From assembly GCA_963837025.1 (NCBI GenBank), contig CAWILT010000002.1, positions 230,554-294,553 on the forward strand: a stretch of DNA of 64,000 nucleotides. The letters are read 5' to 3'. The notes under the pieces are model-generated. The model was not told where the DNA came from. It saw only the letters and a list, made by a program, of their open reading frames with translations, and made no database searches. Origin of the DNA: an uncultured Alphaproteobacteria bacterium (lineage in GTDB: Bacteria > Pseudomonadota > Alphaproteobacteria > Rickettsiales > JALZUV01). A program made the position numbers and the translations under genes. Positions 29,282-44,285 of the stretch are shown piece after piece. Position 1 is the first letter of the stretch. Each line of letters starts with the position of its first letter.

Positions 29282-29367
29282 GGAGGGGTGGCTGAGCGGT
29301 CAAAAGCAACGGACTGTAACTCCGTCGGAGTATTCCTACGCAGGTTCGAATCCTGCCCCCTCCACCA
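29282..29367 (+). tRNA. tRNA-Tyr (anticodon GUA), class II with long variable arm, CCA encoded
   Basis: Acceptor stem GGAGGGG/CCCCTCC, anticodon stem ACGGA/TCCGT with loop CUGUAAC, T-arm GCAGG-TTCGAAT-CCTGC, discriminator A. Close to E. coli tRNA-Tyr. Confidence 0.95.
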
Positions 29368-29708
29368 TTTACAATTACAAACGCCCTTTATGGGTGTTTT
29401 TTTATGACTGAAAAAAGCGTGTTTCTGCGCTGTTTAGCCTGTGCGTGTGAGCACTGTTAGAAAAATTTACAGGGCAAAATTCTCTCTCAAACCTCTCATT
29501 CTCTCACGGCTCTGAGCACCTTTGCGATTTTCCGTACTCACCTTAACGCCTTGATTTACAATCATTTTCAAAAATGATGGTTGGCATCCTATGAATGGTA
29601 TCTTTTTTACTGGTTTTCTAACTTTTCAAATTTTTTTCATCAGCCTTCGTCATTTCGTCATCCGATTTTGTACCGGCCTGAGAACAACAACAAATATGGA
29701 GTTCTCAC

Positions 29709-29945
29709 ATGCGATTAAGTACAAAACTGCCCGATGAAATGAGCGCGAATGAGCGTTTAAAAGAAATAGCATCCATTCTGGCCAAGGCCTTATCCAGAGA
29801 TAATCAGGACGATGCCAACATATTGAAAAACCTTGATAATAAGAGAGGTTTGACTGGACTTCCCGTCCCTTCGAAGCATTCATGCTCTAACAACAAAAAA
29901 TTCTCAAAACACAAGGGAAATGAAGGAGTTAGACATGAAGATTGA
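29709..29945 (+). CDS. hypothetical small protein
   Basis: ORF with a GGAG Shine-Dalgarno. Lies upstream of the DUF2924/recombinase module. Weak support only. Confidence 0.3.
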   Translation: MRLSTKLPDEMSANERLKEIASILAKALSRDNQDDANILKNLDNKRGLTGLPVPSKHSCSNNKKFSKHKGNEGVRHED

Positions 29946-30408
29946 TGTTGTAAAAACAGCGGCGGAGTTTGAAAGCATGAGCGCAAAAGAGCTGTTGGCG
30001 GAATGGCCGCGCTATTTTGATGATCCGCCAAAAAGCAGATCGAACAAAAGCTATCTGATGGGCGAACTGATTTACCGTATTCAGGAGTTGTCATACGGCG
30101 GTTTGACCAAGCAGACGATTGATCGGCTGGAGGCACTGGCTGAAAACAAATCCTTGAAAGAACGTAAAGGCGATGTCTCCCGCCTTGCCATCGGCACAAG
30201 ATTGGTGCGGGAAGTCAAAGGCGTTGAGCATCATGTCACGGTGCTGGAGGAAGGCTACGAGTATCAGGGCGTTAAATATAAAAGTCTCTCTGGTGTGGCA
30301 TATGCCATTACTGGCACGCGCTGGAACGGTAATGTGTTTTTTGGCCTCGGCAAAAAGGAAAACCCTCGCCCCTATAGACGATCTCGAAAAATCGGAGGGG
30401 GTCAATAA
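29935..30408 (+). CDS. DUF2924-family protein (recombinase-associated)
   Basis: LLAEWPRYFDDPPKSRSNKSYLMGELIYRIQELSYGGL, typical of DUF2924 from memory. AAGGAG lies 6 nt before ATG 29935. The stop overlaps the recombinase ATG. Confidence 0.7.
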   Translation: MKIDVVKTAAEFESMSAKELLAEWPRYFDDPPKSRSNKSYLMGELIYRIQELSYGGLTKQTIDRLEALAENKSLKERKGDVSRLAIGTRLVREVKGVEHHVTVLEEGYEYQGVKYKSLSGVAYAITGTRWNGNVFFGLGKKENPRPYRRSRKIGGGQ

Positions 30409-31766
30409 TGCAGCAAAAGAAAATTGTCCGTTGCGCCATCTACACCCGCAAGTCCACTGAAGAAGGCCTCGATATGGATTACAACACGCTGGATGCCCAG
30501 CGCGAGGCGGGTGAAAAATATGTCGAGGCGATGAAGCATGAAGGCTGGCGTATCATTCCTGATCTGTATGATGATGGCGGGTTCTCAGGTGGGAACATGG
30601 ACCGCCCAGGCTTGAAGAAGCTGATTGAGGATATTAAAGCCGGTCGCATTGATACGGTGGTGGTCTACAAGGTCGACCGTTTGACACGCTCGCTTGCTGA
30701 CTTTGCCAAACTGGTGGAAGTGTTTGATGCATATGGCACGAGCTTTGTCTCCGTCACCCAGCATTTTAATACGCAAGACTCCATGGGGCGATTAACGCTC
30801 AATATCCTGCTCAGTTTTGCCCAGTTTGAACGTGAAGTCACGGGCGAACGCATCCGCGATAAGTTTGCCGCATCAAAGAAGAAAGGCATGTGGATGGGCG
30901 GTCCGCCCCCGCTGGGTTATGATGTTGTTGATCGTAAACTCATCATCAATCCTGTTGAGGCCGATCAGGTTAAGTATATTTTTGAGACCTATGTCCTGCT
31001 TGGCGGGTCTATTTCACTGGTTTTGAAAAAGCTCAATGATGAAGGCTATAAAACCAAATCTTACACCAGTCGTACAGGCCAACGCCGAGGGGGCCATAAA
31101 TATGGTACCGCGACAGTCAAAACCATTTTGAGAAACAGGCTCTATATTGCCGAGGTTCATCACAAAGGCACGTATTACCCAGGACAACACCGACCGATTA
31201 TATCAATGGAGCTGTTTAACAAGGCACAGGAAGTTCTTGCTGAAAAAGCGACGGTAAAAAGCAAACGCACTTATGCAGCCAAATCGAAGTCTTTGTTGAG
31301 AGGAATTATTGTTTGTGGCGGGTGTCATGGGGCGATGTCGCCCACTTACACCAAGAAAAAGAATAAGCGCTATGAGTATTACGTTACCAATTCCTATCGC
31401 CAGCACAGTTGCGGTGAATGTCCAGTCAGCCGCATCCCTGCGGGTGAAATTGATGCCATCATCAAGGGACAGCTCAAAGCCATTTTTGCAAGCCCAAAAA
31501 TATTGGTTGAGGTTTGGCGACAGGCGAAAAAAGACAATCCCGCATTTCAGGAATATGAGCTGCATGAAAGTTTAAAGCGGCTGGGATCATTTTGGGATTT
31601 GCTCTACCCCGGCGAACAAAAGCGCATCACGCAGTTACTGATTTCACGGGTGGTGGTCAAATCTAACGGTGTCGATATCGAATATCGCGCCAGCGGGATT
31701 GAGGATGTTGTCCACCAGCTTCAGCTTACCATCAATAAACAAGAGCAATTAAGGGAGGCATCATAA
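30408..31766 (+). CDS. large serine recombinase
   Basis: Resolvase catalytic domain (AIYTRKSTEEGL..., VVVYKVDRLTRSL, ERIRDKF), then a recombinase domain and a Cys-rich zinc ribbon (CGGCHGAM...CGECP). Confidence 0.9.
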   Translation: MQQKKIVRCAIYTRKSTEEGLDMDYNTLDAQREAGEKYVEAMKHEGWRIIPDLYDDGGFSGGNMDRPGLKKLIEDIKAGRIDTVVVYKVDRLTRSLADFAKLVEVFDAYGTSFVSVTQHFNTQDSMGRLTLNILLSFAQFEREVTGERIRDKFAASKKKGMWMGGPPPLGYDVVDRKLIINPVEADQVKYIFETYVLLGGSISLVLKKLNDEGYKTKSYTSRTGQRRGGHKYGTATVKTILRNRLYIAEVHHKGTYYPGQHRPIISMELFNKAQEVLAEKATVKSKRTYAAKSKSLLRGIIVCGGCHGAMSPTYTKKKNKRYEYYVTNSYRQHSCGECPVSRIPAGEIDAIIKGQLKAIFASPKILVEVWRQAKKDNPAFQEYELHESLKRLGSFWDLLYPGEQKRITQLLISRVVVKSNGVDIEYRASGIEDVVHQLQLTINKQEQLREAS

Positions 31767-32171
31767 ATGCAGCTTGATACAGATAATCAGAAAATCGTCA
31801 TCCATGTGCCGGTTAACATGAAAAAATGGGGCGGTAAAAAAGTCATTGTGGGGCCGCAAGGGCAAGATTTAAGACGGCTTGATCGTGAAAACAGGCGTGA
31901 TGACAAACTCCTTAAAGCACTGGGGCGAGCCTATAAATGGCAAAAATGGATCAAGATTGGTAAATGCAACAGCGCCGAAGATATCAGTGATATCGAAAAT
32001 ATTAATCGGTCTTATGTGCTGCGTATTTTGCGCCTAAACCGCCTTTCGCCAAATATCATCAAGGCCATTTTGGATGGTAACCAGCCCGATGGGTTTGGTC
32101 TGTGCGATGTTGAAAAGCCATTCCCGCTATTATGGGATGAACAAGAAGATCAATTTGGTTTTCGTATCTGA
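31767..32171 (+). CDS. recombinase-associated HTH-like protein
   Basis: ATG immediately follows the recombinase stop. LKALGRAYKWQKWIKIG...INRSYVLRILRLNRLSPNIIKAILDGNQP resembles the conserved partner of such recombinases. Confidence 0.55.
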   Translation: MQLDTDNQKIVIHVPVNMKKWGGKKVIVGPQGQDLRRLDRENRRDDKLLKALGRAYKWQKWIKIGKCNSAEDISDIENINRSYVLRILRLNRLSPNIIKAILDGNQPDGFGLCDVEKPFPLLWDEQEDQFGFRI

Positions 32172-32371
32172 TGATCATGCATCCGTTTGTATGATTAATA
32201 ACATCATACAGCTGTAGGATTTTCCAAAACCCAAAAATATCAAAACATTATTTCCTAAAGGGTTAGACGGTATCGACCAAATGGTAGTTGTACTGAATGG
32301 TTCATAACCTCTTCTAATTGCACTTATTTTTGCATTTTCTTTTCTGAGAAAAACAACTCGGAGGAGAAAGA

Positions 32372-32943
32372 ATGTCAAAGAACCGCTACGGCGGCGTAGA
32401 CTCCTACGCCGCTTTTTTTATTGCTTTTAAAGTCAAACAATTGCTGCGAATGCCGATCTTTAATCGGGATGATTTCGAGGATTTGGAACAGGAATTGATG
32501 CTGGCTTTTATTAAAGCTGAGCCTTCATACGATCCCGCCAAAGGTCATCGAAAATCATTCATTAAATCCGTTATCAATAATCACGCTCGCAACTTGGTCA
32601 TAGCGACCGAAGCCCAGAAAACTGGACGGGTCAAAAAGAGCGGAGCCTGTCAGAAACGCTGCTGGATGATGTGGATCATATAGAGCTTTTGGACACGATA
32701 ACAGAAGCGCATTTGCCGTGGTCTGACGGCTATGCCCCGCTGTCTATTGAGGCGCTGGAACTGGTGATGGATGAGGAGCGCATCATTCGTGACATGCCAG
32801 AAACCTTGCGCGAAACCTATCACATTCTCAAAGATTATAGTGTTTCCGAAGCCGCCAAACTGACGGGCATACACCGCTCAACATTATCAAGCCGCGCACA
32901 AAATTTGCGGAAATACCTCAAAGAACTGCGGGAGAAAAAATAA
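32372..32943 (+). pseudogene. sigma-70/ECF-like sigma factor split by a frameshift
   Basis: Region-2-like FEDLEQELMLAFIKAEPSYDPAKGHRKSFIKSVINNHARN in frame 2. Region-4-like LRETYHILKDYSVSEAAKLTGIHRSTLSSRAQNLRKYLKEL in frame 1. The frames overlap around the A5 run at 32633..32637. Confidence 0.6.
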
Positions 32944-33033
32944 AACGAAAAAAATATCGTGAGGGCTTCGTCATTCGGCAAACCAATCTTGTACCGGCGC
33001 TTTTAGGACCAACAAAACCTAAAAGGAGCAAAC

Positions 33034-33276
33034 ATGACACTGTCCGTACAAGAAAAAATCGACCTTGGTGATGCCGTTTTTAAATGGGTGCAACACACGC
33101 CGGTGGGGCATCTGAAAGATTTGAGCGATGATGATCTGGAAATGATCCGCCAGCAACTGATCAAGGAAGTCCGTGAGGTCGGCAGAGCGCTGCATTGGAT
33201 CGATGGGATTATCAAACTCAAATTCATTGAACGTGATCAGCAACCGTCCAATCCTGTTGTGGAGGTGCGCTCATGA
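33034..33276 (+). CDS. hypothetical phage protein
   Basis: AAGGAG Shine-Dalgarno. 4-nt overlap with the next gene. Confidence 0.45.
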   Translation: MTLSVQEKIDLGDAVFKWVQHTPVGHLKDLSDDDLEMIRQQLIKEVREVGRALHWIDGIIKLKFIERDQQPSNPVVEVRS

Positions 33277-33656
33277 AACAAAAAAAGACCGTCACCGTAA
33301 AGCAAAAATACGTGGAAGACCGCATTCATAATGCGGCGCGCACGCTCCGCCGATTACCTGAAGAGCGTGTTCAGGGATATTTCAGCACGTGGCCGAAAAT
33401 CAAGCGCGATGAAATGGAAATCCTGCAGATGGAGAAAGAGCCGATGCGGATCAGGCCAAGCATGGAGGACATCACGCAAATGGAAGAAGTCCTGTTTGTG
33501 TGGCTGCGCTGGTTGGAGGTGGACGAGCGCAAGCTCGTCTGGCAACGCGCCGAACGTGTGCGCTGGAAGCTGATCTGCGCGCAGTTTGGCGTGGGTCGCA
33601 CCAAAGCCTGGGAGATGTACAAATGCGCGCTGGGTAAGATCGCCGCCCGCATATGA
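33273..33656 (+). CDS. hypothetical phage protein with C-terminal HTH-like segment
   Basis: ...WKLICAQFGVGRTKAWEMYKCALGKIAARI. Coupled to both neighbours by overlaps. Confidence 0.5.
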   Translation: MKQKKTVTVKQKYVEDRIHNAARTLRRLPEERVQGYFSTWPKIKRDEMEILQMEKEPMRIRPSMEDITQMEEVLFVWLRWLEVDERKLVWQRAERVRWKLICAQFGVGRTKAWEMYKCALGKIAARI

Positions 33657-34099
33657 GCCAACTGACCTTTGCCCCAATCCCGAATGAGATACTGCGCCGG
33701 ACAGATTTAAGTCCTGGCGCAAAATTGTGCTGCGCGCGCCTCATTCAGTATGCGGGCAAAGATGGGCAGGCTTTTCCTAAACTGGCAACGCTAGGCGAAG
33801 AGCTGGGTTTTTCGTCCAGAAATGTCCAGCGCTTTATTGCCGAATTGGAAAGCCATAAGCTGGTGACAACGCAACAACGGGGGCGTGGTCAATCGAATAT
33901 CTACCATGTGGATAAGTCGATACTTATCCACAACCCCAAACTTACCACGACAGATTTGTCCACTCTAGACCGGACGAATTCGTCCACTCCAGACACGACA
34001 GATTCGTCCACACCATATAAAGGAAGAAAAGATAACTTTAAAAAAGAAATAGAAAAGATAACAGCGGGCCTTGTGCATAACATGCGAATGCCGCGCTGA
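33653..34099 (+). CDS. winged-HTH protein, replication-initiator-like
   Basis: IPNEILRRTDLSPGAKLCCARLIQYAGKDGQAFPKLATLGEELGFSSRNVQRFIAELESHKLV. The C-terminal part is encoded by 24-bp repeats. Confidence 0.6.
   Translation: MSQLTFAPIPNEILRRTDLSPGAKLCCARLIQYAGKDGQAFPKLATLGEELGFSSRNVQRFIAELESHKLVTTQQRGRGQSNIYHVDKSILIHNPKLTTTDLSTLDRTNSSTPDTTDSSTPYKGRKDNFKKEIEKITAGLVHNMRMPR
33948..34011 (+). repeat. three 24-bp-phased direct repeats (iteron-like)
   Basis: CGACAGATTTGTCCAC (33948), GACGAATTCGTCCAC (33973), CGACAGATTCGTCCAC (33996). The GTCCAC cores are spaced exactly 24 nt apart. Confidence 0.6.
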
Positions 34100-34189
34100 T
34101 CCCAAAAAAGAATAAGCAAAAACTGATGCTAATTGACTTGATAACCCTCGGAAATGAAGCGTTACTGGTGTTAACAAAGGAGCAAAACG

Positions 34190-34408
34190 ATGACAAACAC
34201 ACAAGAAAAAAGAACGGCGCTGGACGCCTTTATCGAACACAAAGCCCGTATTGACGAGATGCTGGAGCGCCTGCAAGCGGCAAGCGCAGACCATTTTGAA
34301 ACCAACCCTGATGATATACGCTGGGGCGACGCGGGCTTTTTAGCAGACATTGCCAGCGACCTACAACACATCACCGACCGTGTTTTCAAGGAGGGTGAAT
34401 ATGCCTAA
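34190..34408 (+). CDS. hypothetical phage protein
   Basis: AAGGAG Shine-Dalgarno. The stop overlaps the next start. Confidence 0.45.
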   Translation: MTNTQEKRTALDAFIEHKARIDEMLERLQAASADHFETNPDDIRWGDAGFLADIASDLQHITDRVFKEGEYA

Positions 34409-34583
34409 AACCACTCAACAGCAAATTGACCAGCTTTTAACTGAAATAGCCAAGAAGCATTTGAACCTTGAAACGCTGGAAACCCAAAACAGCGACAGCC
34501 TTGATTTTCACGACGTGTCCGTCTGGTTTTTGAAAAAGGCTTTGCAGGAGGCGTATGAGGCGGGCTTAAGGACCAAAAGATAA
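34401..34583 (+). CDS. hypothetical phage protein
   Basis: ATG 34401 follows AGGAGGGTG. LETQNSDSLDFHDVSVWFLKKALQEAYEAG. Confidence 0.45.
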   Translation: MPKTTQQQIDQLLTEIAKKHLNLETLETQNSDSLDFHDVSVWFLKKALQEAYEAGLRTKR

Positions 34584-34584
34584 C

Positions 34585-34679
34585 GTATCTTATTATTTGC
34601 ATTAAGACCTATAAAGATAACAATAAGATACATTAAACTGTTTTAGGCTTGATTTTTACCTTAATGTATCTTATTATTT
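34585..34679. promoter_or_regulatory. hipB promoter with repeated operator-like motif
   Basis: GTATCTTATTATTT occurs at 34585 and 34666, and the inverted AATAAGATAC at 34622. TTGATT(34649)-N17-TATTAT(34672) overlaps the last copy. Confidence 0.5.
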
Positions 34680-34728
34680 ACACTAGGGCATATAAGGTAA
34701 AATATAAAACACATTACGGATTAACGAC

Positions 34729-35070
34729 ATGAGCATGAGCAAAAAGACACATCTACCAATCCCCGTGCAGAAAGCCTTAAGAAGGCTTGGCAAAGACATT
34801 AGCGATGCTCGCCGCCGCCGTCGCATTGCTATGGAGCTGATGTCTGAGCGCGCAGGGTTTTCGCGGATCACTTTATCCAAAATTGAAAAAGGTGATCCAA
34901 GTGTGTCTATGGGTTCATACGCTTCGGCTCTCTTTGTCTTGGGCATGATCGATCATCTGGGTGGGATTGCGGACGCGTCTCACGATATTGTCGGGCGTGA
35001 GTTGGAGGAAGAAAGCCTGCCAAAAAGAATTCGAGCGCCACAATCTAACAAAGGGGAAGCCAATGAGTAG
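34729..35070 (+). CDS. hipB: Xre-family HTH antitoxin, HipB-like
   Basis: LRRLGKDISDARRRRRIAMELMSERAGFSRITLSKIEKGDPSVSMGSYASALFVLG. 8-nt overlap with hipA. Confidence 0.8.
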   Translation: MSMSKKTHLPIPVQKALRRLGKDISDARRRRRIAMELMSERAGFSRITLSKIEKGDPSVSMGSYASALFVLGMIDHLGGIADASHDIVGRELEEESLPKRIRAPQSNKGEANE

Positions 35071-36331
35071 CCAGCAAATTTACGTTTCCATTGAGCTTGG
35101 CGACGAAACATTCAAGGTTGGAAAGCTTTGGTTTCACCAACGTGGTGCGCGACAAAGCGCTTCCTTTGAATATGAGCCAGAATGGCTGAAACATTCAGAA
35201 AAGTTTGCATTAGACCCTGCGCTCCAATTAACCGAAGGTGCGTTTCATACCACACCGGATCAGATTTTATTTGGCGCTATTGGTGATTCTGCTCCTGACC
35301 GTTGGGGGCGCGTCCTAATGCGCCGTGCGGAAAGTGCGCGCGCCAAATTGGCTGGAGAAACAACACGAACGCTCTCTGAGGTAGATTATCTCCTGGGCGT
35401 AAATGATGAAGCACGCCAAGGCGCATTACGCTTTTCTTTGGAAGATGGCGGCCCATACCTCACACCAAAAGATAAAGAAAGCATCCCACCGCTGATTGAT
35501 CTGCCCAGATTGCTCTCGGCAACAGAGCGTTATCTCAATGATGATGAAACAGCCGAGGATTTGAAAATATTATTGGCGCCTGGCTCATCCCTTGGTGGTG
35601 CACGACCAAAAGCATCCGTTCGAGACAAAGACGGCCATCTTGCCATCGCCAAATTCCCGAAAAAAGATGATGAATTCAACGTGGTTGTCTGGGAGGCTGT
35701 TGCACTCACTTTGGCAGAAAAAGCAGGCATCACGACGGCAGAATGGCGCTTGGAAACAATCATGGACAAGCCTGTTTTGATTTTACGCCGTTTTGACCGT
35801 CAGGATGGGAAGCGTGTGCCTTTCTTATCAGCAATGAGCATGTTGGGCGCAAAGGACAATGACCCTCACAGTTATCTTGAAATTGCCTATGCGTTGACGC
35901 AAAGCGGTGCGAATCCAAACAGTGATCTGGAAGAATTGTGGCGGCGGATTGTGTTTACGGTTTTGATTTCCAATACAGATGACCATTTAAGAAATCATGG
36001 ATTTTTATATGAACGCCATAAAGGTTGGCGTTTATCACCTGCCTATGACGTTAATCCGACGCCAGTTGAAATCAAAGCAAGGATGTTATCAACCTCAATT
36101 GATTTTGATGACCCCACCGCATCTATTGATTTGGCATTATCCGTTATTGATGATTTCAGAATCAAGAAATCACGGGCGCAGAAAATTATCAGAGAAGTTG
36201 CCACGGCGGTCAGTGAGTGGCGGCCTGTTGCTACACAGTTTGATTTAAGCAAGAAGGAAGCTGATCGCATGGCTTCTGCTTTTGAGCATGAAGATTTAAA
36301 AAAAGCGTTAGGTATAAAAGATGAAAATTAA
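35063..36331 (+). CDS. hipA: HipA-family serine/threonine kinase toxin
   Basis: N-terminal coupling domain (VGKLWFHQRG...FEYEPEWL), SLGGARPKASV, catalytic loop ISNTDDHLRNHGFLY. ATG 35063 preferred to the track start. Confidence 0.9.
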   Translation: MSSQQIYVSIELGDETFKVGKLWFHQRGARQSASFEYEPEWLKHSEKFALDPALQLTEGAFHTTPDQILFGAIGDSAPDRWGRVLMRRAESARAKLAGETTRTLSEVDYLLGVNDEARQGALRFSLEDGGPYLTPKDKESIPPLIDLPRLLSATERYLNDDETAEDLKILLAPGSSLGGARPKASVRDKDGHLAIAKFPKKDDEFNVVVWEAVALTLAEKAGITTAEWRLETIMDKPVLILRRFDRQDGKRVPFLSAMSMLGAKDNDPHSYLEIAYALTQSGANPNSDLEELWRRIVFTVLISNTDDHLRNHGFLYERHKGWRLSPAYDVNPTPVEIKARMLSTSIDFDDPTASIDLALSVIDDFRIKKSRAQKIIREVATAVSEWRPVATQFDLSKKEADRMASAFEHEDLKKALGIKDEN

Positions 36332-37433
36332 AGATATTGTAAAACCGGAAACTTTGTCTGCATTAGAAGAAATCAATAATAGATATGCTTCTTTGAATAA
36401 GGCTTTGTATTCTTCTCCCGCTGTACAACTCATGCAACAACTTGAAGCTCAAAGTTTGTCTTTAAATAAATATCTCCAGCCCTATGCGGACATCGCACAA
36501 GCTTTTCGTCTATCAATTGCTCCTAAAATGGAAGCTTTTGCTGCATTACAATCGAGTTTGGCGCCACTTTCAAAGCAACTGCTTGAATTCAGAAGTCCTC
36601 TGCAGGAAGCTCTTGAGCAAATTCAAAAACAAACAGCACCGCTACAAGAGGCAATGAAGCGGTTTCAGGATATTCAAAGTCGTATAGATTATTCTCAAAT
36701 CAATGAAGCTTTTCGCAGCATTACAGATGTCATTAACAGCATCCCAAGAGATCGTCTGATAAAACTCCGGCTTCACTCCCAATATTGGCTTATCAGTGAT
36801 GATGAATTACTTCTGGCCGTAGGTGATAATGATAATTTAGAGGCAGAGTCGTTAACTGATTTTGTTATCGGTTATTACAAGGATAACAATTGGACGCGCA
36901 TGGCTAATATGGTTCAAACTTGGCAGATTTCAATTAGTCAAGAACGCTTAGATATCTTTAATAGTGCATTACAGCATACTCAAACAGCATCTTCAGAAGA
37001 TGTTCATTTACTTACTGTCCCAGCATTGATTGCCCAAATTGATGGATTAATTAGAGAGCTCTACTCATGCCTACCAAAAGAAATAAAAAAACGTATAGAA
37101 AAAGAGATAACAGATAGCCTACCAGAAGAGATTAAGTCTAAAAGAATAGATACTCGTCCCAATCAAGTTGTGGCTAGTGTTGCAGAGCTTGTAGATTATT
37201 GGTCAGCAGAAATCCTACAAGAAGCTATTTATGAAGGCCTTTTTAAGTCATCCAATAATATAACAGCGGATGGAAGCTATTCGCTTTATCGTCATAAAAT
37301 TATGCATGGAGATAAAGACTTCTTAAGATACGGAAACGAAGAAAACTTTGTACGCCTTATGCTTTACGCTGATTTTATAATTAACTTAATCAATCAAGTT
37401 AAAACTGAGCCTCCTAAAGTAAGTGCAGCATAA
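36321..37433 (+). CDS. hypothetical protein; N-terminal helical repeats, C-terminal HEPN-like R-x4-H motif
   Basis: The ATG lies 11 nt inside the hipA 3' end. AT-rich. SLYRHKIMHGDKDF and PALIAQIDGLIRE. No family recognised with certainty. Confidence 0.6.
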   Translation: MKIKDIVKPETLSALEEINNRYASLNKALYSSPAVQLMQQLEAQSLSLNKYLQPYADIAQAFRLSIAPKMEAFAALQSSLAPLSKQLLEFRSPLQEALEQIQKQTAPLQEAMKRFQDIQSRIDYSQINEAFRSITDVINSIPRDRLIKLRLHSQYWLISDDELLLAVGDNDNLEAESLTDFVIGYYKDNNWTRMANMVQTWQISISQERLDIFNSALQHTQTASSEDVHLLTVPALIAQIDGLIRELYSCLPKEIKKRIEKEITDSLPEEIKSKRIDTRPNQVVASVAELVDYWSAEILQEAIYEGLFKSSNNITADGSYSLYRHKIMHGDKDFLRYGNEENFVRLMLYADFIINLINQVKTEPPKVSAA

Positions 37434-37455
37434 AAAATGTTCGCGAACATTTTTA
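37434..37455 (+). terminator. terminator after the hip-associated gene
   Basis: Perfect palindrome AAAAATGTTCGCGAACATTTTT. Confidence 0.7.
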
Positions 37456-37517
37456 CAGCGGACAGGTCGAACAAAAAACGATAGTCTAATCAATACAATC
37501 GCCGGAATTGTACCGCA

Positions 37518-37559
37518 AAGCCACGCAACCATTGACCATGGGCGTGGCTTTTGCTTTTT
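37518..37559 (+). terminator. second hairpin/terminator
   Basis: AAGCCACGC ... GCGTGGCTT with a 15-nt loop, followed by TTGCTTTTT. Confidence 0.45.
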
Positions 37560-37768
37560 CCCTTCCCTGTTATAGCAAAAAAGGTACTTCCGGCGATTGA
37601 ACCCTATGCGGCGGGCTTAGGCGCAGGAGTTTTTTAGCGCCAGAAGATTTTTTTGGGTACGCGCCCCCACCGCCAATCATCAAAAAACCAGTCAGAGCAA
37701 CGTGTTCAAGGTGCGTACCTTGGCGCGTACTCATGCGTACCTGACTGCAAAAAAGGAATTTGAATTTG

Positions 37769-38345
37769 TGGATCATCGTTCCCTTAACATTTTGTCCTTG
37801 TGCGCCGGTGTCGGCGGACTCGACCTCGGCATCCGAGTGGCGCAGCCAAATGCTCGAGCAGTCTGTTTTGTCGAGATCGAAGCCTTTGCGTGCGAAATCT
37901 TGGCAACGCGCATGGAAGACAAAAGCTTGGACGAAGCGCCTGTTTGGACGGATTGCCCCCGCGATCACCGGAGGCGATGGAGAAATTGATGGGACCGAAC
38001 GGTCAACGGGCGGGACGATCCCGTCCGAGCAATCTTCGGGAACAGATTATGTGGCCGACCGTGACCGCACAGGATTCCAAAAACAATGCAGGGCCGAGCC
38101 AGTTTGTGCGGAACACGAAGCCGTTGAATGTGGAAGCTGTTTGCCATTCCCACCCGCACCCGAAGGCAATTGGAACGGAATCCCAGCCGGTCTTAAACCC
38201 GCAATTTGTCGAATGGCTGATGGGCTGGCCCATCGGGTGGACAGAATTCGAGCCTGTGGAAACGGTGTCGTCCCATTGGCTGCCGCTCATGCGTGGGGCG
38301 TTCTTACAACTGCAGCAAATGGAGGAAAATAAAAATCATGACTGA
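37769..38345 (+). pseudogene. C5 cytosine DNA methyltransferase, internally deleted and frameshifted
   Basis: Motif I LSLCAGVGGLDLG in one frame. WPTVTAQDSK and LNPQFVEWLMGWPIGWTE in a second. DRIRACGNGVVPLAAAHAW in a third. No PCQ catalytic motif in any frame. Confidence 0.65.
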
Positions 38346-39621
38346 TGCAAAATCAAAAGAACTGAAAATCGAGCATGTATCGGTTGATGACCTGATCCCT
38401 TATGCCAAAAATGCGCGCACACATTCTGATACGCAGGTGGCGCAGATTGCAGCATCGATGACGGAATTCGGGTTTGTGAATCCTATTCTGCTGGGTGAGG
38501 ATAATATCATCATTGCAGGGCATGGGCGTTTGATGGCGGCGAAACTGCTGGGCATGAAAAACGTGCCAACCATTCGCCTGAACCATTTAAACGAAGCACA
38601 GCGCCGTGCGCTGGTGATTGCGGATAATAAAATTGCTGAGAACGCGGGTTGGGATGAAACCCTGCTGCGGGAAGAATTATCCGCGCTGGAAGATTTGGAT
38701 TTCAACATAGACTTGTTGGGTTTTAATGCTGAGGAATTGGACAATCTGTTCTTGGATGATGCCAATGCCGCTGGCGGCTTAACCGATGAAGATGCAGCAC
38801 CTGAAGTGCCAGAAACGCCTATCAGCGTCCCTGGCGATATTTGGATTTGCGGTGAGCATAAAGTGCTGTGCGGCGACTCCACCATGATTGATAGTTACAA
38901 TGCCTTGTTAGGTGAAGAACTGGCGGACATGGTTTTTACCGATCCGCCTTATAACGTCAATTACGCAAACTCCATGAAAGACAAAATGCGGGGTAAAGCC
39001 CGCCCGATCCAAAATGATAATCTGGGCGATGGGTTTGGCGATTTTCTCTATGATGTTTGCACCAATCTGATGATGGTGTGCAAAGGCGCAATGTATGTGT
39101 GCATGAGCTCGTCCGAGCTTCATACGCTGCACGGCGCATTTGTTGGCGCAGGTGGCAAATGGTCGACCTTTATCATCTGGGCAAAAAATACCTTCACGCT
39201 GGGGCGGGCGGATTATCAGCGCCAGTATGAGCCGATCCTTTATGGCTGGAAAGATGGGCATGAGCATTTTTGGTGCGGGGCCAGAGATCAAAGCGATGTT
39301 TGGTTTGTGAACAAGCCTGTTAAAAATGACCTGCACCCCACCATGAAACCTGTGGAGCTGGTGGAGCGTGCCATTCACAATTCCAGTAAAACCAAGGATA
39401 TTGTTTTGGATGCGTTTGGCGGTTCGGGATCAACCATGATCGCCTGCGAAAAAACAGGTCGCCGCGCCAGATTGATTGAGCTTGATCCCAAATATGTCGA
39501 TGTCATCGTCAAACGTTGGGAGGATTTTACAGGGAAGAAAGCCGTTTTAAATTCTACAGAAAAGGAGTTTGATGAATTGGCTAAATCCCGGAAAAAGAGT
39601 AAAGTAGATGAAATTAATTGA
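38338..39621 (+). CDS. ParB-like nuclease domain fused to N6-adenine/N4-cytosine DNA methyltransferase
   Basis: VDDLIPYAKNARTHS...IIAGHGRLMAA (ParB N-terminal domain), FTDPPYNVNY (motif IV), VLDAFGGSGSTMIA (motif I). Confidence 0.9.
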   Translation: MTDAKSKELKIEHVSVDDLIPYAKNARTHSDTQVAQIAASMTEFGFVNPILLGEDNIIIAGHGRLMAAKLLGMKNVPTIRLNHLNEAQRRALVIADNKIAENAGWDETLLREELSALEDLDFNIDLLGFNAEELDNLFLDDANAAGGLTDEDAAPEVPETPISVPGDIWICGEHKVLCGDSTMIDSYNALLGEELADMVFTDPPYNVNYANSMKDKMRGKARPIQNDNLGDGFGDFLYDVCTNLMMVCKGAMYVCMSSSELHTLHGAFVGAGGKWSTFIIWAKNTFTLGRADYQRQYEPILYGWKDGHEHFWCGARDQSDVWFVNKPVKNDLHPTMKPVELVERAIHNSSKTKDIVLDAFGGSGSTMIACEKTGRRARLIELDPKYVDVIVKRWEDFTGKKAVLNSTEKEFDELAKSRKKSKVDEIN

Positions 39622-39630
39622 GGGAACATA

Positions 39631-40641
39631 ATGGCAGAAATTTCATATTTTCAAAAATACTCGCAACGAGAAAATCATATCACCAATAATACGATGCTTA
39701 TGTTCCGGCATATCTATCGTCATAATCCGTTGCGCTTTGAAAAGTTTTTGAAAGAAATCATATCTGACGCTCAAATTGATATTGGATTGGTTTTTAGCCA
39801 ACAAATCAGAGAGCAAAGCAGCATCCCAGATGGGTACATTCGTCAAACTCCATTGAGCATTTACATTGAAGCAAAAGCCGACGGCGAGCTTTATTTGGAA
39901 CAAATTCAACGTCATGTCGATAGTGTTGTAAAATCAAACCTTCCGAAAGGTTCTGCAGTAATAATAGGGTTGGCAAAGAAGCAACCCAATGAAGCAGTTA
40001 TCAAAGAATTTGAACGTGTTTGTAATGATGTGGGTATTCATTACACGACCATTACATATTTAGAATTAGTGGCCTTGCTAAACGACAAGGGTATTTTTCC
40101 AGAACATGAAACTGATTTACAGGAAATAATTGAAGATTATGAGACATTCTTAAGATCAGACGGAATGTTACCAAATCCCTACGAAATGGTGGCTTTCCCC
40201 TGCGGAACATCTTGGGACGAGAACATTAAATACAGCATATATTACGAACAATCTTCCAAATCCTCTAAAGCGCATGTTCCATATATAGGAATTTACAACA
40301 ATAAAAAAATCACTCACATCGCCGAAATTCTTGGGACTTGCATTTGTAAACCTGAAAAAGATGGTCTGGTCTTTGAAAAAGAATATGGATGCGTATCACA
40401 AGAAGACATAGATAAAATCCGAGATGTGATCTCGGCGACTAATTACTATGATCTTAATCAAGGATTAGAAAGATATTACCTCTTGGGCGATCTTTATGAA
40501 GTTAATATCGAGAAAAAATCTTCTGGCGGTATTCGTGGTCACAGATACTTTGATTTACAAGAGTTATCCGGTGATAAAATTTTGCCAGAAGATTCCATAG
40601 AAGACATATCAAAAAAAGTTTCAGGCAGTAGCTTTATCTAA
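39631..40641 (+). CDS. hypothetical protein with N-terminal PD-(D/E)xK nuclease-like motifs
   Basis: GAGGGA Shine-Dalgarno, 9 nt after the methylase stop. RENHITNNTMLMF ... IPDGYI ... LSIYIEAKADGEL ... QIQRH. AT-rich. C-terminal 200 aa unrecognised. Confidence 0.55.
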   Translation: MAEISYFQKYSQRENHITNNTMLMFRHIYRHNPLRFEKFLKEIISDAQIDIGLVFSQQIREQSSIPDGYIRQTPLSIYIEAKADGELYLEQIQRHVDSVVKSNLPKGSAVIIGLAKKQPNEAVIKEFERVCNDVGIHYTTITYLELVALLNDKGIFPEHETDLQEIIEDYETFLRSDGMLPNPYEMVAFPCGTSWDENIKYSIYYEQSSKSSKAHVPYIGIYNNKKITHIAEILGTCICKPEKDGLVFEKEYGCVSQEDIDKIRDVISATNYYDLNQGLERYYLLGDLYEVNIEKKSSGGIRGHRYFDLQELSGDKILPEDSIEDISKKVSGSSFI

Positions 40642-40920
40642 AATTTTGTAACGCCGCACGCCATCAACACGTTCGCTGATAATCTCTGCGCCTGCTTTTT
40701 TGAGGATAGAGAGATGCCCGCGCACGGTGTGGGCTTGCCAGCCGGTTTGTTTGGTTAGCTCCTCAATCGTCGCCCCCTTATCGGATTTGAGCAGTTGCTC
40801 AACCAGCGTCTTCTTGGTGATTTTTGGCGCTGGCTCTGCTGTAGTTTCGGGCGTTGTTTCGACGGCCTCGACTGGCTTTGCATCAAGGGCTTCAATTGGT
40901 TTTTTGCTTTGTTTTGTCAT
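40621..40920 (-). CDS. DUF3489-family protein
   Basis: KKTLVEQLLKSDKGATIEELTKQTGWQAHTVRGHLS...RRYKI. Met at 40920. Confidence 0.7.
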   Translation of the reverse strand: MTKQSKKPIEALDAKPVEAVETTPETTAEPAPKITKKTLVEQLLKSDKGATIEELTKQTGWQAHTVRGHLSILKKAGAEIISERVDGVRRYKILDKATA

Positions 40921-41003
40921 GGTTTTTCCTTTCTGTTGTGATGTCCATGAATGCTTCAATAGGCACGCTTATCAAGTCAATAATCCTTAAAAAGTGAGAG
41001 AAT

Positions 41004-41504
41004 ATGGGACTTTCAATCAGGAAATACGCCACATTGCGCGGTGTAACCGAAGGCGCTGTGCGGAAAGCTATCAGCTCGGGGCGCATCACGCCGAATGAGG
41101 ATGGCACAATCGATGTCGAACGGGCGGATCGTGAATGGAAAGAAAATACCGATGAGGCAAAAATCAATACGGGTCTGCCGGTGATGACCGAGAACATGCC
41201 CGCCGCCAACGGCAAGCCATCGTTTACCAAAATCAAAACGGCGCATGAGCTTTATAAGGCGCAGCTGACACAGCTTTCCCTACAGGAAAAGAAAGGACAG
41301 CTCATCAACAAAGACATGGTGAAAACCCAAGTGTATCGCCTGGGGCGGCAGGTTCGGGATAGCTGGCTGAATTGGCCTGCGCGTGTGTCGGCCTTGATGG
41401 CTGCTGATCTGGGCATTGACGAACACGCTCTTCATCAGGCGTTAGAGCGCTATGTGAGGGAGCATTTAAATGACATTGGAGAGGGAAAACTCAATTTCGA
41501 TTGA
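41004..41504 (+). CDS. phage terminase small subunit (Nu1-like HTH)
   Basis: LSIRKYATLRGVTEGAVRKAISSGRI... N-terminal HTH. Position and overlap with the large subunit. Confidence 0.7.
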   Translation: MGLSIRKYATLRGVTEGAVRKAISSGRITPNEDGTIDVERADREWKENTDEAKINTGLPVMTENMPAANGKPSFTKIKTAHELYKAQLTQLSLQEKKGQLINKDMVKTQVYRLGRQVRDSWLNWPARVSALMAADLGIDEHALHQALERYVREHLNDIGEGKLNFD

Positions 41505-42990
41505 GTATGACGCGGCATTTGTTCAAAACGTCTACCTCAAAAGTTTCACCCCCGAACCGCATTATGATGTTGCCGATTGGGCCGATAAATATCGCCTGTT
41601 ATCGGGTAAATCCGCAGTAGAACCTGGGGAATGGAAAACCGCCCGCACGCCTTACCTCAAAGAGGTAATGAACCAGCTTTCCACCAGCTCGCCCGCACAG
41701 CGCATTGTGTTTATGAAGGGCGCGCAGGTCGGCGGAACGGAAGCCGGTAATAACTGGATTGGTTATATCGTGCATATGGCGCCAGGGCCGATGATGGCGG
41801 TATCGCCCACGGTGGAGCTGGCCAAGCGTAATTCGAAACAGCGGATCGAGCCGTTGCTGCAGGAAACGCCGGAATTGCGCGAGCGTGTAAAGCCTGCGCG
41901 CGAACGGGATAGCGGTAATACAATCCTGAGTAAAGAATTTGAAGGCGGTCTGTTGATTATGACGGGGGCAAATTCGGCGGCGGGTCTGCGCTCTATGCCT
42001 GCGCGGTATTTGTTTATGGATGAGATTGATGCCTATCCAGGGGACGTTGGCGGCGAAGGTGATCCGATCCTGCTGGCCGAACGCCGAAGCGCGACATTCC
42101 GCCTGCGCCGTAAGATTTTTATGGTGAGTACGCCAACAGTGAAAGGAATATCCCGTGTGCAGCGTGAGTTTGAGAAAAGCGATCAGCGCTATTTTTTTGT
42201 TCCTTGCACGAAATGTGGCCATTACCAGCATTTGCGCTTTACACAACTGCGCTGGCCTGAGGGCGATCCGGAAGAAGCTAAATACGCTTGTGAATCCTGC
42301 GGGCGTCTCATGCATAATCATGAGAAAACCTTACTGCTATCCAAGGGTGAATGGCGGGCAACGGCGGAAAGCATTGATGGCACGGTTGGTTATCATTTGT
42401 CATCGCTCTACAGTCCCGTCGGGTGGTTTAGCTGGTCGGATGCGGCAACGCTATTTGAAGAAGCCAAGCGCAATCCCGATCTCATGAAGGGTTTTGTCAA
42501 CACGGTGCTGGGTGAACCTTATGAGGAATCATCCGAAGCGCCGGAATGGCAACGCATTTATGAGCGCCGTGAAAAATACAGCCAGGGTGTTGTGCCGATG
42601 GGCGGTTTATTCCTCACCGCCGGTGTGGATGTGCAAAAAGACCGTCTTGAATGTGAAGTGGTGGCTTGGGGACGCAACAAACAAAACTGGTCGGTGGATT
42701 ATATCATCATCGATGGGGATACCGCCCGCCAAGATACATGGGATCGGCTCGCGGTCGAAGTCTTGGAACGTGATTGGCTTCATGCCTCTGGTCACACCAT
42801 GCCCATTCGGGTGATGGCGGTGGATTCCGGTTATGCCACGCAGGATGTTTACGCCTTTGTGCGCCAGCATCCGCAGGCCGTTTGGGGTGGTTCGGGCGCA
42901 CGCGCCAGCCAGCCACGCACTGTGGTTGCCATTAAGGGACAAGAGCGCAATACGGCGCTGATCTTGAGCGTGTCCAAAGCTGATGCGTAT
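41470..42990 (+). pseudogene. terminase large subunit (lambda GpA family), 3'-truncated by deletion and fused in frame to a portal fragment
   Basis: FMKGAQVGGTE, YLFMDEIDAY, zinc-ribbon-like CTKCGHYQ...CESCG, VDVQKDRLECEVVAWG, MAVDSGY. The junction coordinate is approximate (42980..43010). Confidence 0.8.
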
Positions 42991-43915
42991 TTGGGCTTTG
43001 GCGTCGATATCAGCGATTGGGAGCGTATCCCCTCAGTGACCAGTTTTGGTCGCCGCCGTGTTCTGCATATTCATGATAAGGAGCGCACCGGGCAGCATCG
43101 TGGGAAGCCGCTTCTGACTTCCATCATGCCGATGTTTAAAATGCTGGATCATTATGAAAGGTCCGAGCTTCAGGCGGCGGTGGTGAATGCCATGATTGCG
43201 GCGTTTATTGAAACACCGCTGGATGGTGAAAGCATTGGCGAGATGTTTGGCGGGTCGGTGGATGATTACCTCGCCGCCCGTAATGAATGGGATATTCGCC
43301 TGCAGGGTGGATCAATTATTCCGATATTTCCGGGCGATAAAGTTGCGCCCTTTACGCCAAGCCGCCCGAATAGCGGCTACGGTCAGTTTGTTGAGAACGT
43401 ACTGCGCCATATTGGTGCGGGTTTGAATATTCCGTTTGAATTGTTGATGAAGGATTTTTCCAAAACCAACTATTCAAGCGCCCGGGCGGCACTCTTGGAG
43501 GCATGGCGATATTTTTCGGCGCAACGCCAGTGGCTTGCCACCTACTGGGCAAGGCCTGTTTATGAACTATGGCTGGAAGAAGCGATTAACAAGGGGCTCA
43601 TTGAAGCCCCTGATTTTTATGAGAACAAAGCCGCATGGACACGGTGCAAGTGGATTGGTCCCAGGTCGTGGTTGGGTTGATCCTGTCAAAGAAGCCAAAG
43701 CAGCCCATCTAAGGATGCAGATTGGTCTTTCCACGCTGGAAGATGAATGTGCCAGCCAAGGCTTGGATTGGGAAGAAGTCTTGGAACAGCTTGCCCGTGA
43801 AAAAGCCAAGATCACTGAGCTTGGCCTCACGATCAATGATGTGAACAGCATTTTAAACACCAACACTCAAGAAAAAGAGGATAACGATGAGAATCTGGAA
43901 CCGCATAACCGGTGA
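42991..43915 (+). pseudogene. lambda-family portal protein, C-terminal fragment, frameshifted
   Basis: VLHIHDKERTGQHRGKPLL...SELQAAVVNAMIAAFIE...YSSARAALLEAWRYF. Deleting the extra A at 43663 restores WIGPGRGWVDPVKEAKA. Confidence 0.75.
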
Positions 43916-44285
43916 TCCGTGGGCGATCACTGAAACCGCCTTGCACACGATTTTGGAAGTGGCCGCGCGTGAAAATGAAGCGCCCGAAGCGGTTGCTGCC
44001 AAACTCGGTCGTCAATTGCAAAACAGCTATAACGCCACCGAGCGTGATGGTGTTGCCATTATTCCTGTAACAGGGCCGCTCTTTCGTTACGCCAATATCT
44101 TCACGGCGATCAGCGGTGCGTCCAGCTATGAGTTGATTGCGCGTGATTTTATGAGCGCCCTTGAAAACCCGCAAATCAGCTCGATTATTTTGGATATTGA
44201 TTCCCCCGGCGGTGAAGTCAACGGCGTGTCCGAGCTGGCCAGTATGATTTTTGAAGCACGCGGCACAAAACCGATCATTGCTTAA
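43887..44285 (+). pseudogene. S49/ClpP-like head maturation protease, N-terminal 132 aa only
   Basis: VAIIPVTGPLFRYAN...ILDIDSPGGEVNGVSELASMIFEARGTKPIIA, then a stop. About two-thirds of a normal protease/scaffold protein is missing. Confidence 0.7.

Follow-up and report, generated by a model that had tools for sequence, protein, structure and literature searches.

The forward strand of the window analysed here, a stretch of 64,000 nucleotides (nt) from an uncultured alphaproteobacterium (contig CAWILT010000002.1), carries at 34729-36331 what is by its sequence a canonical hipBA type II toxin-antitoxin (TA) operon, and a third open reading frame (ORF), here called gene 3, overlaps the 3' end of hipA. 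Our reading, to which we give a probability of about 0.58, is that of a HipB-controlled operon carrying a swappable, autonomous candidate defence cargo. The data do not support an obligate three-component system. We would describe the finding as a TA operon that carries hotspot cargo, together with a large unannotated HEPN-like family, and not as a categorically new system. Coordinates of the features are given in Table 1; loci compared with the window are labelled L, and homologous proteins P.

As judged from the aligned loci, the 3' end of the hipBA operon is a gene-exchange point. Compared with L046, L047 and L125, the DNA of the window is 91.7% identical over 31077-36310 and 94.9% identical from 37429 onwards, and unrelated in the segment 36311-37428 between them. 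The HipA proteins of these three loci are 96.6% identical to the one of the window (tblastn). In total, three states of the segment are found on prophage backbones of at least 90% identity: it holds gene 3, it holds an unrelated gene encoding a protein of 413 amino acids (aa), or it is empty. The 413-aa gene occupies the segment in L046, L047 and L125, where it starts 2 nt past the hipA stop. In the empty sites (L052, L053, L105) hipA ends with ...DLEKAKKA and its TAA directly abuts the palindrome that closes the segment. Both cargos are inserted after the hipA codons for ...DLKKA and both end on the same ancestral TAA. The stop codon of gene 3 is this ancestral hipA TAA, reused, and the last approximately seven codons of hipA, those after ...DLKKA, come from the inserted cassette. 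At the empty site of L052 (1585-1600) a difference of 1 nt puts the TAA out of frame, and hipA reads more than 40 extra codons through the palindrome.

Unrelated cargo or none at one and the same site, with boundaries shared at the level of single bases, is the pattern of a prophage cargo hotspot or moron site. The preliminary description of this DNA had put forward a three-component module. Understood as an obligatory one, this does not agree with near-identical backbones that carry an unrelated third gene or none, nor with the fact that most gene 3 lineages are found without hipBA. The fallback offered in the same description, an independent abortive-infection (Abi)-like moron that landed on the hipA stop, is the best fit to the data.

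The association of hipBA with gene 3 is, on the evidence of the compared loci, real and recurrent, and it is facultative on both sides, because gene 3 occurs without hipBA and hipA orthologues occur without a downstream gene. The hipB-hipA-gene 3 triad is found again in a second lineage (L015, L016, L041, L042), with identities to the window of 71% for HipA, 62% for HipB and about 50% for gene 3, and with either a 4-nt overlap or a 5-nt gap at the junction of hipA and gene 3. In L001/L040 and L008 gene 3 lies in the same prophage slot without hipBA and is 86-88% identical to triad-linked copies, whereas in L002 and L003, next to a CBASS operon, all that is left of hipA is a frameshifted 3' stub, with gene 3 and the backbone downstream of it retained. 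Stand-alone orthologues are present in L009, L010-13, L014 and L126. The closest homologue, P0002 (L045), is 58% identical and overlaps its upstream gene by 17 nt, and a homologue of 30% identity, P0019 (L004-7), is placed between DrmD (E 3e-211) and a type III-like methyltransferase (MTase) gene with 4-nt overlaps. Conversely, for many hipA orthologues (55-90% identity) the 300 nt that follow contain no gene in the same direction. Homologues of gene 3 do recur next to hipA in L015, L016, L041 and L042, but most gene 3 lineages lack hipBA.

Some neighbours at these loci deserve a separate mention. The gene overlapping the start of P0002 (L045 909-3323) encodes an 804-aa protein which matches phrog_25374 and has no Pfam match. 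P0019 (L004 6001-7077) is found on 22 contigs, with a ResIII helicase and a ZorA-like gene 3' of the MTase gene, and from this gene order seems to be an addition to a DISARM-type operon. Directly 5' of hipB in L015 (3043-3819), and also in L016 and L041, there is a gene for a calcineurin-like metallophosphatase (Metallophos, E 6e-13), which is, by its position, a further variable cargo in the same slot.

Table 1. Position of the hipBA-gene 3 unit and associated features (window coordinates unless a locus is named).
Feature	Position	Strand	Description
hipB	34729-35070	+	113-aa Xre-type helix-turn-helix (HTH) antitoxin/repressor
hipA	35063-36331	+	422-aa full-length HipA Ser/Thr kinase toxin; stop 36329-36331
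Gene 3	36321-37433	+	370 aa; ATG 36321, stop 37431-37433
hipB upstream control region	34581-34716	+	Candidate HipB operators, predicted
Exchangeable cargo segment	36311-37428	+	Sole stretch dissimilar to L046, L047 and L125 (otherwise 92-95% identical)
Palindrome	37434-37455		Perfect 22-nt palindrome AAAAATGTTCGCGAACATTTTT; right boundary of cargo site; backbone feature
Hairpin	37515-37559	+	Strong hairpin then U-run; -21.9 kcal/mol, z -4.3
Gene 3, N-terminal helical region	36516-36677	+	Four approximately 14-aa (A/S)-P-L-x-x-(E/Q) repeats
Gene 3, C-terminal domain	36768-37415	+	Conserved, all-alpha; residues approximately 150-365; unannotated family
Gene 3, motif R324-H-K-I-M-H329-G	37290-37310	+	R324 and H329 invariant; residue after R is H or N
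413-aa alternative cargo gene	L046 5260-6501		Same site as gene 3
Degraded prophage, approximately 15 kb	29282-44285		Next to tRNA-Tyr; synteny with Micavibrio prophages

The packing of hipB, hipA and gene 3 is operon-like. According to the ORF map hipB and hipA overlap by 8 nt and hipA and gene 3 by 11 nt, and AAGGGGA lies just 5' of the hipA start ATG at 35063. The ORF coordinates and overlaps of the preliminary description are confirmed by this map, as is its view of the three genes as one tightly packed unit. That gene 3 is richer in AT than hipBA had been an impression only and is now computed over the whole genes, with a GC content of 36.7% for gene 3 compared with 46.6% for hipA and 50.3% for hipB. 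A promoter scan of the plus strand found no promoter-like site near the junction of hipA and gene 3, and no terminator match was seen there either. An Rfam scan of 34300-38400 gave no match.

HipA matches HipA_C (E 8.5e-50) across the whole profile (1-213 of 213) and, in its N-terminal subdomain, Couple_hipA (E 3.4e-5). It contains the P-loop-like motif SLGGARPKAS and the catalytic motif NTDDHLRNHGF, in line with its earlier identification as a full-length kinase with these two motifs. In PADLOC-DB v2 it also matches the candidate defence family PDC-M03A (E 2.2e-8). HipB shows only weak HTH matches, to HTH_3 (E 0.004) and to TIGR03070 couple_hipB (E 9.6e-5), both under the curated cut-offs. 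A hipB orthologue encoding a 62% identical protein is placed 5' of hipA in L015/L016/L041, and the orthologous hipB-hipA pair is kept in L015, L016, L041 and L046-50. A kinase with HipA_C and the N-terminal subdomain and an upstream HTH gene in the same operon are features of HipBA type II TA systems, as are neutralisation of the kinase toxicity by HipB and autoregulation at operators. The region upstream of hipB comprises two 55-nt direct repeats (34581-34635 and 34662-34716) with inverted GTATCTTATT/AATAAGATAC arms and a sigma70-like promoter match at 34649-34677, whose -10 hexamer falls within the second repeat. This architecture is conserved in L046, L050, L015 and L016, and the repeats are candidate HipB operators.

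At the other end of the unit, the palindrome and the hairpin downstream of it are features of the backbone and not of gene 3, because both cargos end on the same TAA. The palindrome had been described as a perfect palindromic terminator. It is indeed a perfect palindrome; however, it folds weakly (-6.9 kcal/mol, z -2.1) and is not called by the terminator scan, and the stronger hairpin with its U-run lies further downstream. This hairpin is kept in L046, L050, L002 and L015 and is likely to be the intrinsic terminator of the unit. We also considered an integron-like attC array and rejected it: the palindrome is present as a single copy in the window and in each locus, is not repeated around cassettes and has no copy at the left junction, which argues against such an array. 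Between palindrome and hairpin, approximately 60 nt (37456-37514) are conserved, with 95% identity in L046 and L050, and are still recognisable in L002 and L015. This interval has no ORF and no Rfam match; it may encode a small RNA or serve the methylase genes that follow as a regulatory leader.

How such a unit would work can be outlined as follows. A foreign, AT-rich gene 3 would have been inserted between about codon 415 of hipA and the ancestral TAA with its palindrome. We infer that it is transcribed from the hipB promoter and that its translation is probably coupled to that of hipA, because the two genes overlap by 11 nt and because neither promoter nor terminator is matched at their junction. 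Loss of HipB repression would derepress the whole unit and increase the expression of gene 3. The gene 3 product would be an autonomous single-gene module, with its variable N-terminus as a possible sensor or oligomerisation region, and would act as a HEPN-like, metal-independent ribonuclease (RNase) and abortive-infection effector. Nothing in the data suggests that the function of gene 3 depends on HipA or HipB.

The gene 3 protein consists of two different parts. The tandem helical repeats noticed earlier in its N-terminal region are real, with a period of 14 aa (z 5.9) and a best repeat pair matched by none of 500 shuffles. The region has low confidence in the AlphaFold2 (AF2) model and its length varies among homologues. 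In the homologue P0004 the corresponding region (L003 6047-6646) contains an 81-nt (27-aa) tandem repeat in 7.4 copies of 94% identity, and P0003 and P0018 have expanded N-terminal repeats too. These expansions point to rapid length variation of the N-terminal region. The C-terminal approximately 210 aa match 1182 representative clusters from bacteria and archaea, and the domain is always found at the C-terminus, behind variable N-termini. Close homologues are few (21 proteins, Micavibrio-associated). By these matches the domain represents a large family without Pfam or source annotation. When the diverse profile was searched against a large protein database, all matches were hypothetical proteins without a Pfam domain, and Pfam scans of 33 and of 124 family members revealed no recurrent family. 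Remote members match phrog_28904, whose function is unassigned in PHROGs. Gene 3 itself has no match in NCBIfam or PHROGs, and tblastn found none among INPHARED phages and PLSDB plasmids. Remote members lie among varied genes of mobile elements or defence, such as those for MTases, for Panacea and MqsA antitoxins and for a phage portal.

Only three columns are invariant among 124 diverse family members, namely R209, R324 and H329. R324-x4-H329 is invariant in all three alignments (20, 33 and 124 sequences), and residue 325 is mostly H, N being present in P0011 and P0016. The R-x4-H motif followed by G, as well as the conservation of its R and H among homologues, both of which the preliminary description had to leave to later work or read from one sequence, are thus borne out. 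The AF2 model of the domain is all-alpha (pLDDT 84.7, pTM 0.86), with DSSP helices at 207-222, 226-250, 293-307 and 340-362 and a variable helical insert at 253-290. The motif is placed on a short helix (324-328), which is followed by a loop and then by the last helix. In addition, Q239-I-D241-G-L-x-R245 forms a Dx3R pattern, with D241 invariant in the close family and below 90% column conservation in the wide family.

HEPN domains are recognised by an Rx4-6H motif, a polar residue (N/D/H) directly after the R and a position of the motif at the end of helix 3 or where the loop to the last helix starts (PMC3710099). Further HEPN criteria are an insert between helices 2 and 3, a conserved acidic residue (Ex3[KR]) on an earlier helix and metal-independent RNase activity that depends on the R and the H. 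Gene 3 has a conserved Rx4H and a polar residue directly after the R, two features that fit HEPN, and the modelled helix topology is compatible with it. A HEPN-like RNase is the most likely mode of action of gene 3, at odds which we take to be slightly better than even. Several search results weigh against this assignment. Profile and fold searches were trimmed to residues 145-370, because with the full-length protein the N-terminal coiled coil accounted for most of the matches (MCP, designed bundles, spike proteins). No significant similarity to a recognised HEPN family was found: in Pfam, HEPN_RiboL-PSP was reached at E 0.14 and recurred in only two of 124 members. Searches of PDB profiles with the family alignments returned nothing relevant, and Foldseek gave nothing significant, neither against PDB with the full-length and the domain-only AF2 model nor against BFVD, where one marginal unnamed match appeared. 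In PADLOC-DB v2, gene 3 has no match at E <= 1 except for LmuB at noise level (E 0.49), and its homologues P0019, P0052, P0058 and P0117 have none at E <= 0.01. Since no known family was matched, we do not file gene 3 as a member of HEPN. What remains of the earlier HEPN proposal is a resemblance in motif and topology, not shared by the Pfam and PDB profiles or by Foldseek.

For the 413-aa protein, 712 homologues were detected across many phyla, and UniRef labels one of these homologues "NERD domain-containing". The residues E250, D253 and A267-K268-D269 are invariant in this family and Q266 is nearly so, and no match was obtained in Pfam or PDB searches. From this pattern of residues the protein probably belongs to a PD-(D/E)xK-type nuclease family without a Pfam model. 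A relationship between gene 3 and the 413-aa protein was considered and rejected, as neither BLASTP nor hhalign detects similarity.

Certain observations would also suit a modular three-component defence system in which HipB is the repressor and antitoxin, HipA the sensor or switch, and a swappable nuclease the effector controlled by or cooperating with HipA. The triad is kept in two lineages at about 50% gene 3 divergence, with start/stop overlaps or gaps of at most 5 nt; the association is therefore either old or repeatedly assembled, which counts against our reading. Both alternative occupants overlap the hipA stop or start at most 2 nt from it, reuse its TAA and carry nuclease-type invariant motifs, which resembles the swapping of effectors in modular defence and likewise speaks against our reading. 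Moreover, the CBASS-flanked gene 3 of L002 and L003 still has its hipA stub, and a role of HipA-family kinases in phage defence has recently been validated, with other partners (PMC13092281). However, we regard such a system as unlikely: the third site is empty on backbones of at least 90% identity, plain two-gene hipBA is found in many orthologous loci, gene 3 is intact without hipBA in at least eight contexts, and the 413-aa family is spread over many phyla. The most far-reaching version would make hipBA a defence platform, where HipB loss or HipA activation in phage infection frees the kinase and switches on or phospho-gates a nuclease module which is exchanged between prophages and may be gene 3, may be the NERD-like 413-aa protein or may be missing. 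Gene 3 would then also found a new branch of HEPN-like RNases of about 1200 clusters. We mention this as a speculation of low probability.

Gene 3 might also not be a nuclease at all, the two arginines and the histidine binding a ligand, a nucleic acid or a partner, in which case the protein would be a non-catalytic regulator, a sensor or an exclusion factor, or would have no role in defence. Non-catalytic HEPN-type domains do exist (PMC3710099), no profile or fold match to HEPN or any other nuclease is significant, and the family members are annotated as hypothetical proteins only. Yet R-[H/N]-x3-H-G shows no variation and has a position compatible with HEPN domains, and the family occurs in DISARM, CBASS-neighbour, MTase, TA and prophage-cargo contexts, which leaves this account rather improbable. 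A second antitoxin or modulator of HipA, with a role like that of HipS in HipBST, is suggested solely by the shared operon and the presumed coupling of its translation to that of hipA. We consider it very improbable indeed, as HipA is full-length including the N-subdomain (Couple_hipA), gene 3 follows the kinase gene and shows no match of the HipS type, gene 3 is widespread without any HipA, and hipBA is stable without gene 3. The reading of an operon with swappable, autonomous cargo is the one followed below.

In comparison with known systems, the unit resembles HipBA of the Escherichia coli K-12 type, which likewise has an HTH-encoding hipB overlapping a full-length hipA and palindromic repeats over the promoter, but it differs by the additional co-oriented ORF on the hipA stop and by its location in a prophage cargo slot. 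Prophage defence hotspots, such as those of P2 and P4, and morons share with it the variable AT-rich or absent cargo between conserved flanks. Unlike in ordinary hotspots, the exchange point in the window falls within an operon, in the final codons of the toxin gene, and therefore the cargo inherits the TA promoter, the toxin stop codon and the 3' palindrome. HipBST is a three-gene Hip operon too, but it splits the kinase (hipB-hipS-hipT, PMC8262856) instead of adding an effector, as the preliminary description correctly stated. In the window the kinase is intact (422 aa with the N-terminal domain), and the third gene is downstream, dispensable and without any Hip-related match. A hipBA operon with a downstream effector is not among the systems described in the survey of the HipA family (PMC8262856), which agrees with the earlier remark that a kinase toxin and a putative RNase under one HipB-controlled promoter are not known as a described arrangement.

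The HEPN proteins AbiD/F, AbiJ, AbiU2 and AbiV (Anantharaman et al. 2013, PMC3710099) each consist, like gene 3, of one polypeptide a few hundred residues long that ends in an all-alpha domain, have an Rx4H which precedes the last helix and in which a polar residue follows the R, and are found on mobile elements beside restriction-modification or TA genes. Gene 3 differs from them by its larger domain (approximately 210 aa), by an extra invariant Arg (R209) and by the lack of a significant match to any Pfam or PADLOC model of HEPN or Abi proteins and of any match to solved HEPN structures. HipAD/DS-6 (PMC13092281) combines a HipA-family kinase with a partner that is not of the HipB type, in an anti-phage setting. 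There DS-6B, a DUF3037/DUF1829 protein, replaces HipB, whereas the window keeps HipB, and gene 3 is unrelated to DS-6B.

The element around the operon is bordered by tRNA-Tyr (29282-29367) on one side and by host genes from 44886 on the other. Before hipB it comprises DUF2924 with a serine recombinase, a sigma70-like gene, DUF6362, HTH_36 and DUF6900; after gene 3 follow a remnant of a C5-MTase, a ParB_N/N6_N4 MTase, a 336-aa ORF, DUF3489 and a terminase-portal fusion. The same gene order is found in Micavibrio aeruginosavorus (CP003538) and in marine contigs of the Micavibrio type. The fusion (41470-43680) is a 736-aa ORF which joins the ATPase and nuclease domains of a GpA terminase to the C-terminal half of a lambda-type portal (profile 182-354). 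The relatives have terminase, gpW and portal as separate genes, and the element in the window is without structural genes. A deletion at the terminase and portal genes is suggested to have inactivated the prophage, because the two are fused here and separate in the relatives. The C5 cytosine MTase remnant (37702-38345) is split over several frames. Compared with the intact 440-aa DNA_methylase of L050 (6848-8170) it is without approximately 750 nt, the alignment being interrupted at 37954 of the window, equivalent to 7034 and 7792 of L050. The 336-aa ORF (39631-40641), with 36% GC, is placed between the ParB-MTase and DUF3489, where L046 does not have it. No Pfam family matches this ORF, its matches to PD-Lambda-5_A (E 0.006) and phrog_16683 are weak, and the element may have in it a second variable cargo gene.

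If our reading is true, the unit would be a natural case of cargo exchange inside a TA operon at base resolution, and would suggest that TA promoters can be co-opted for other genes which respond to stress or infection. The near-identical backbones with gene 3, with the alternative gene or with an empty site would represent natural controls for a cooperation between HipA and an effector. The family of 1182 clusters with its invariant R...Rx4H would then be a candidate for a new RNase-type defence effector.

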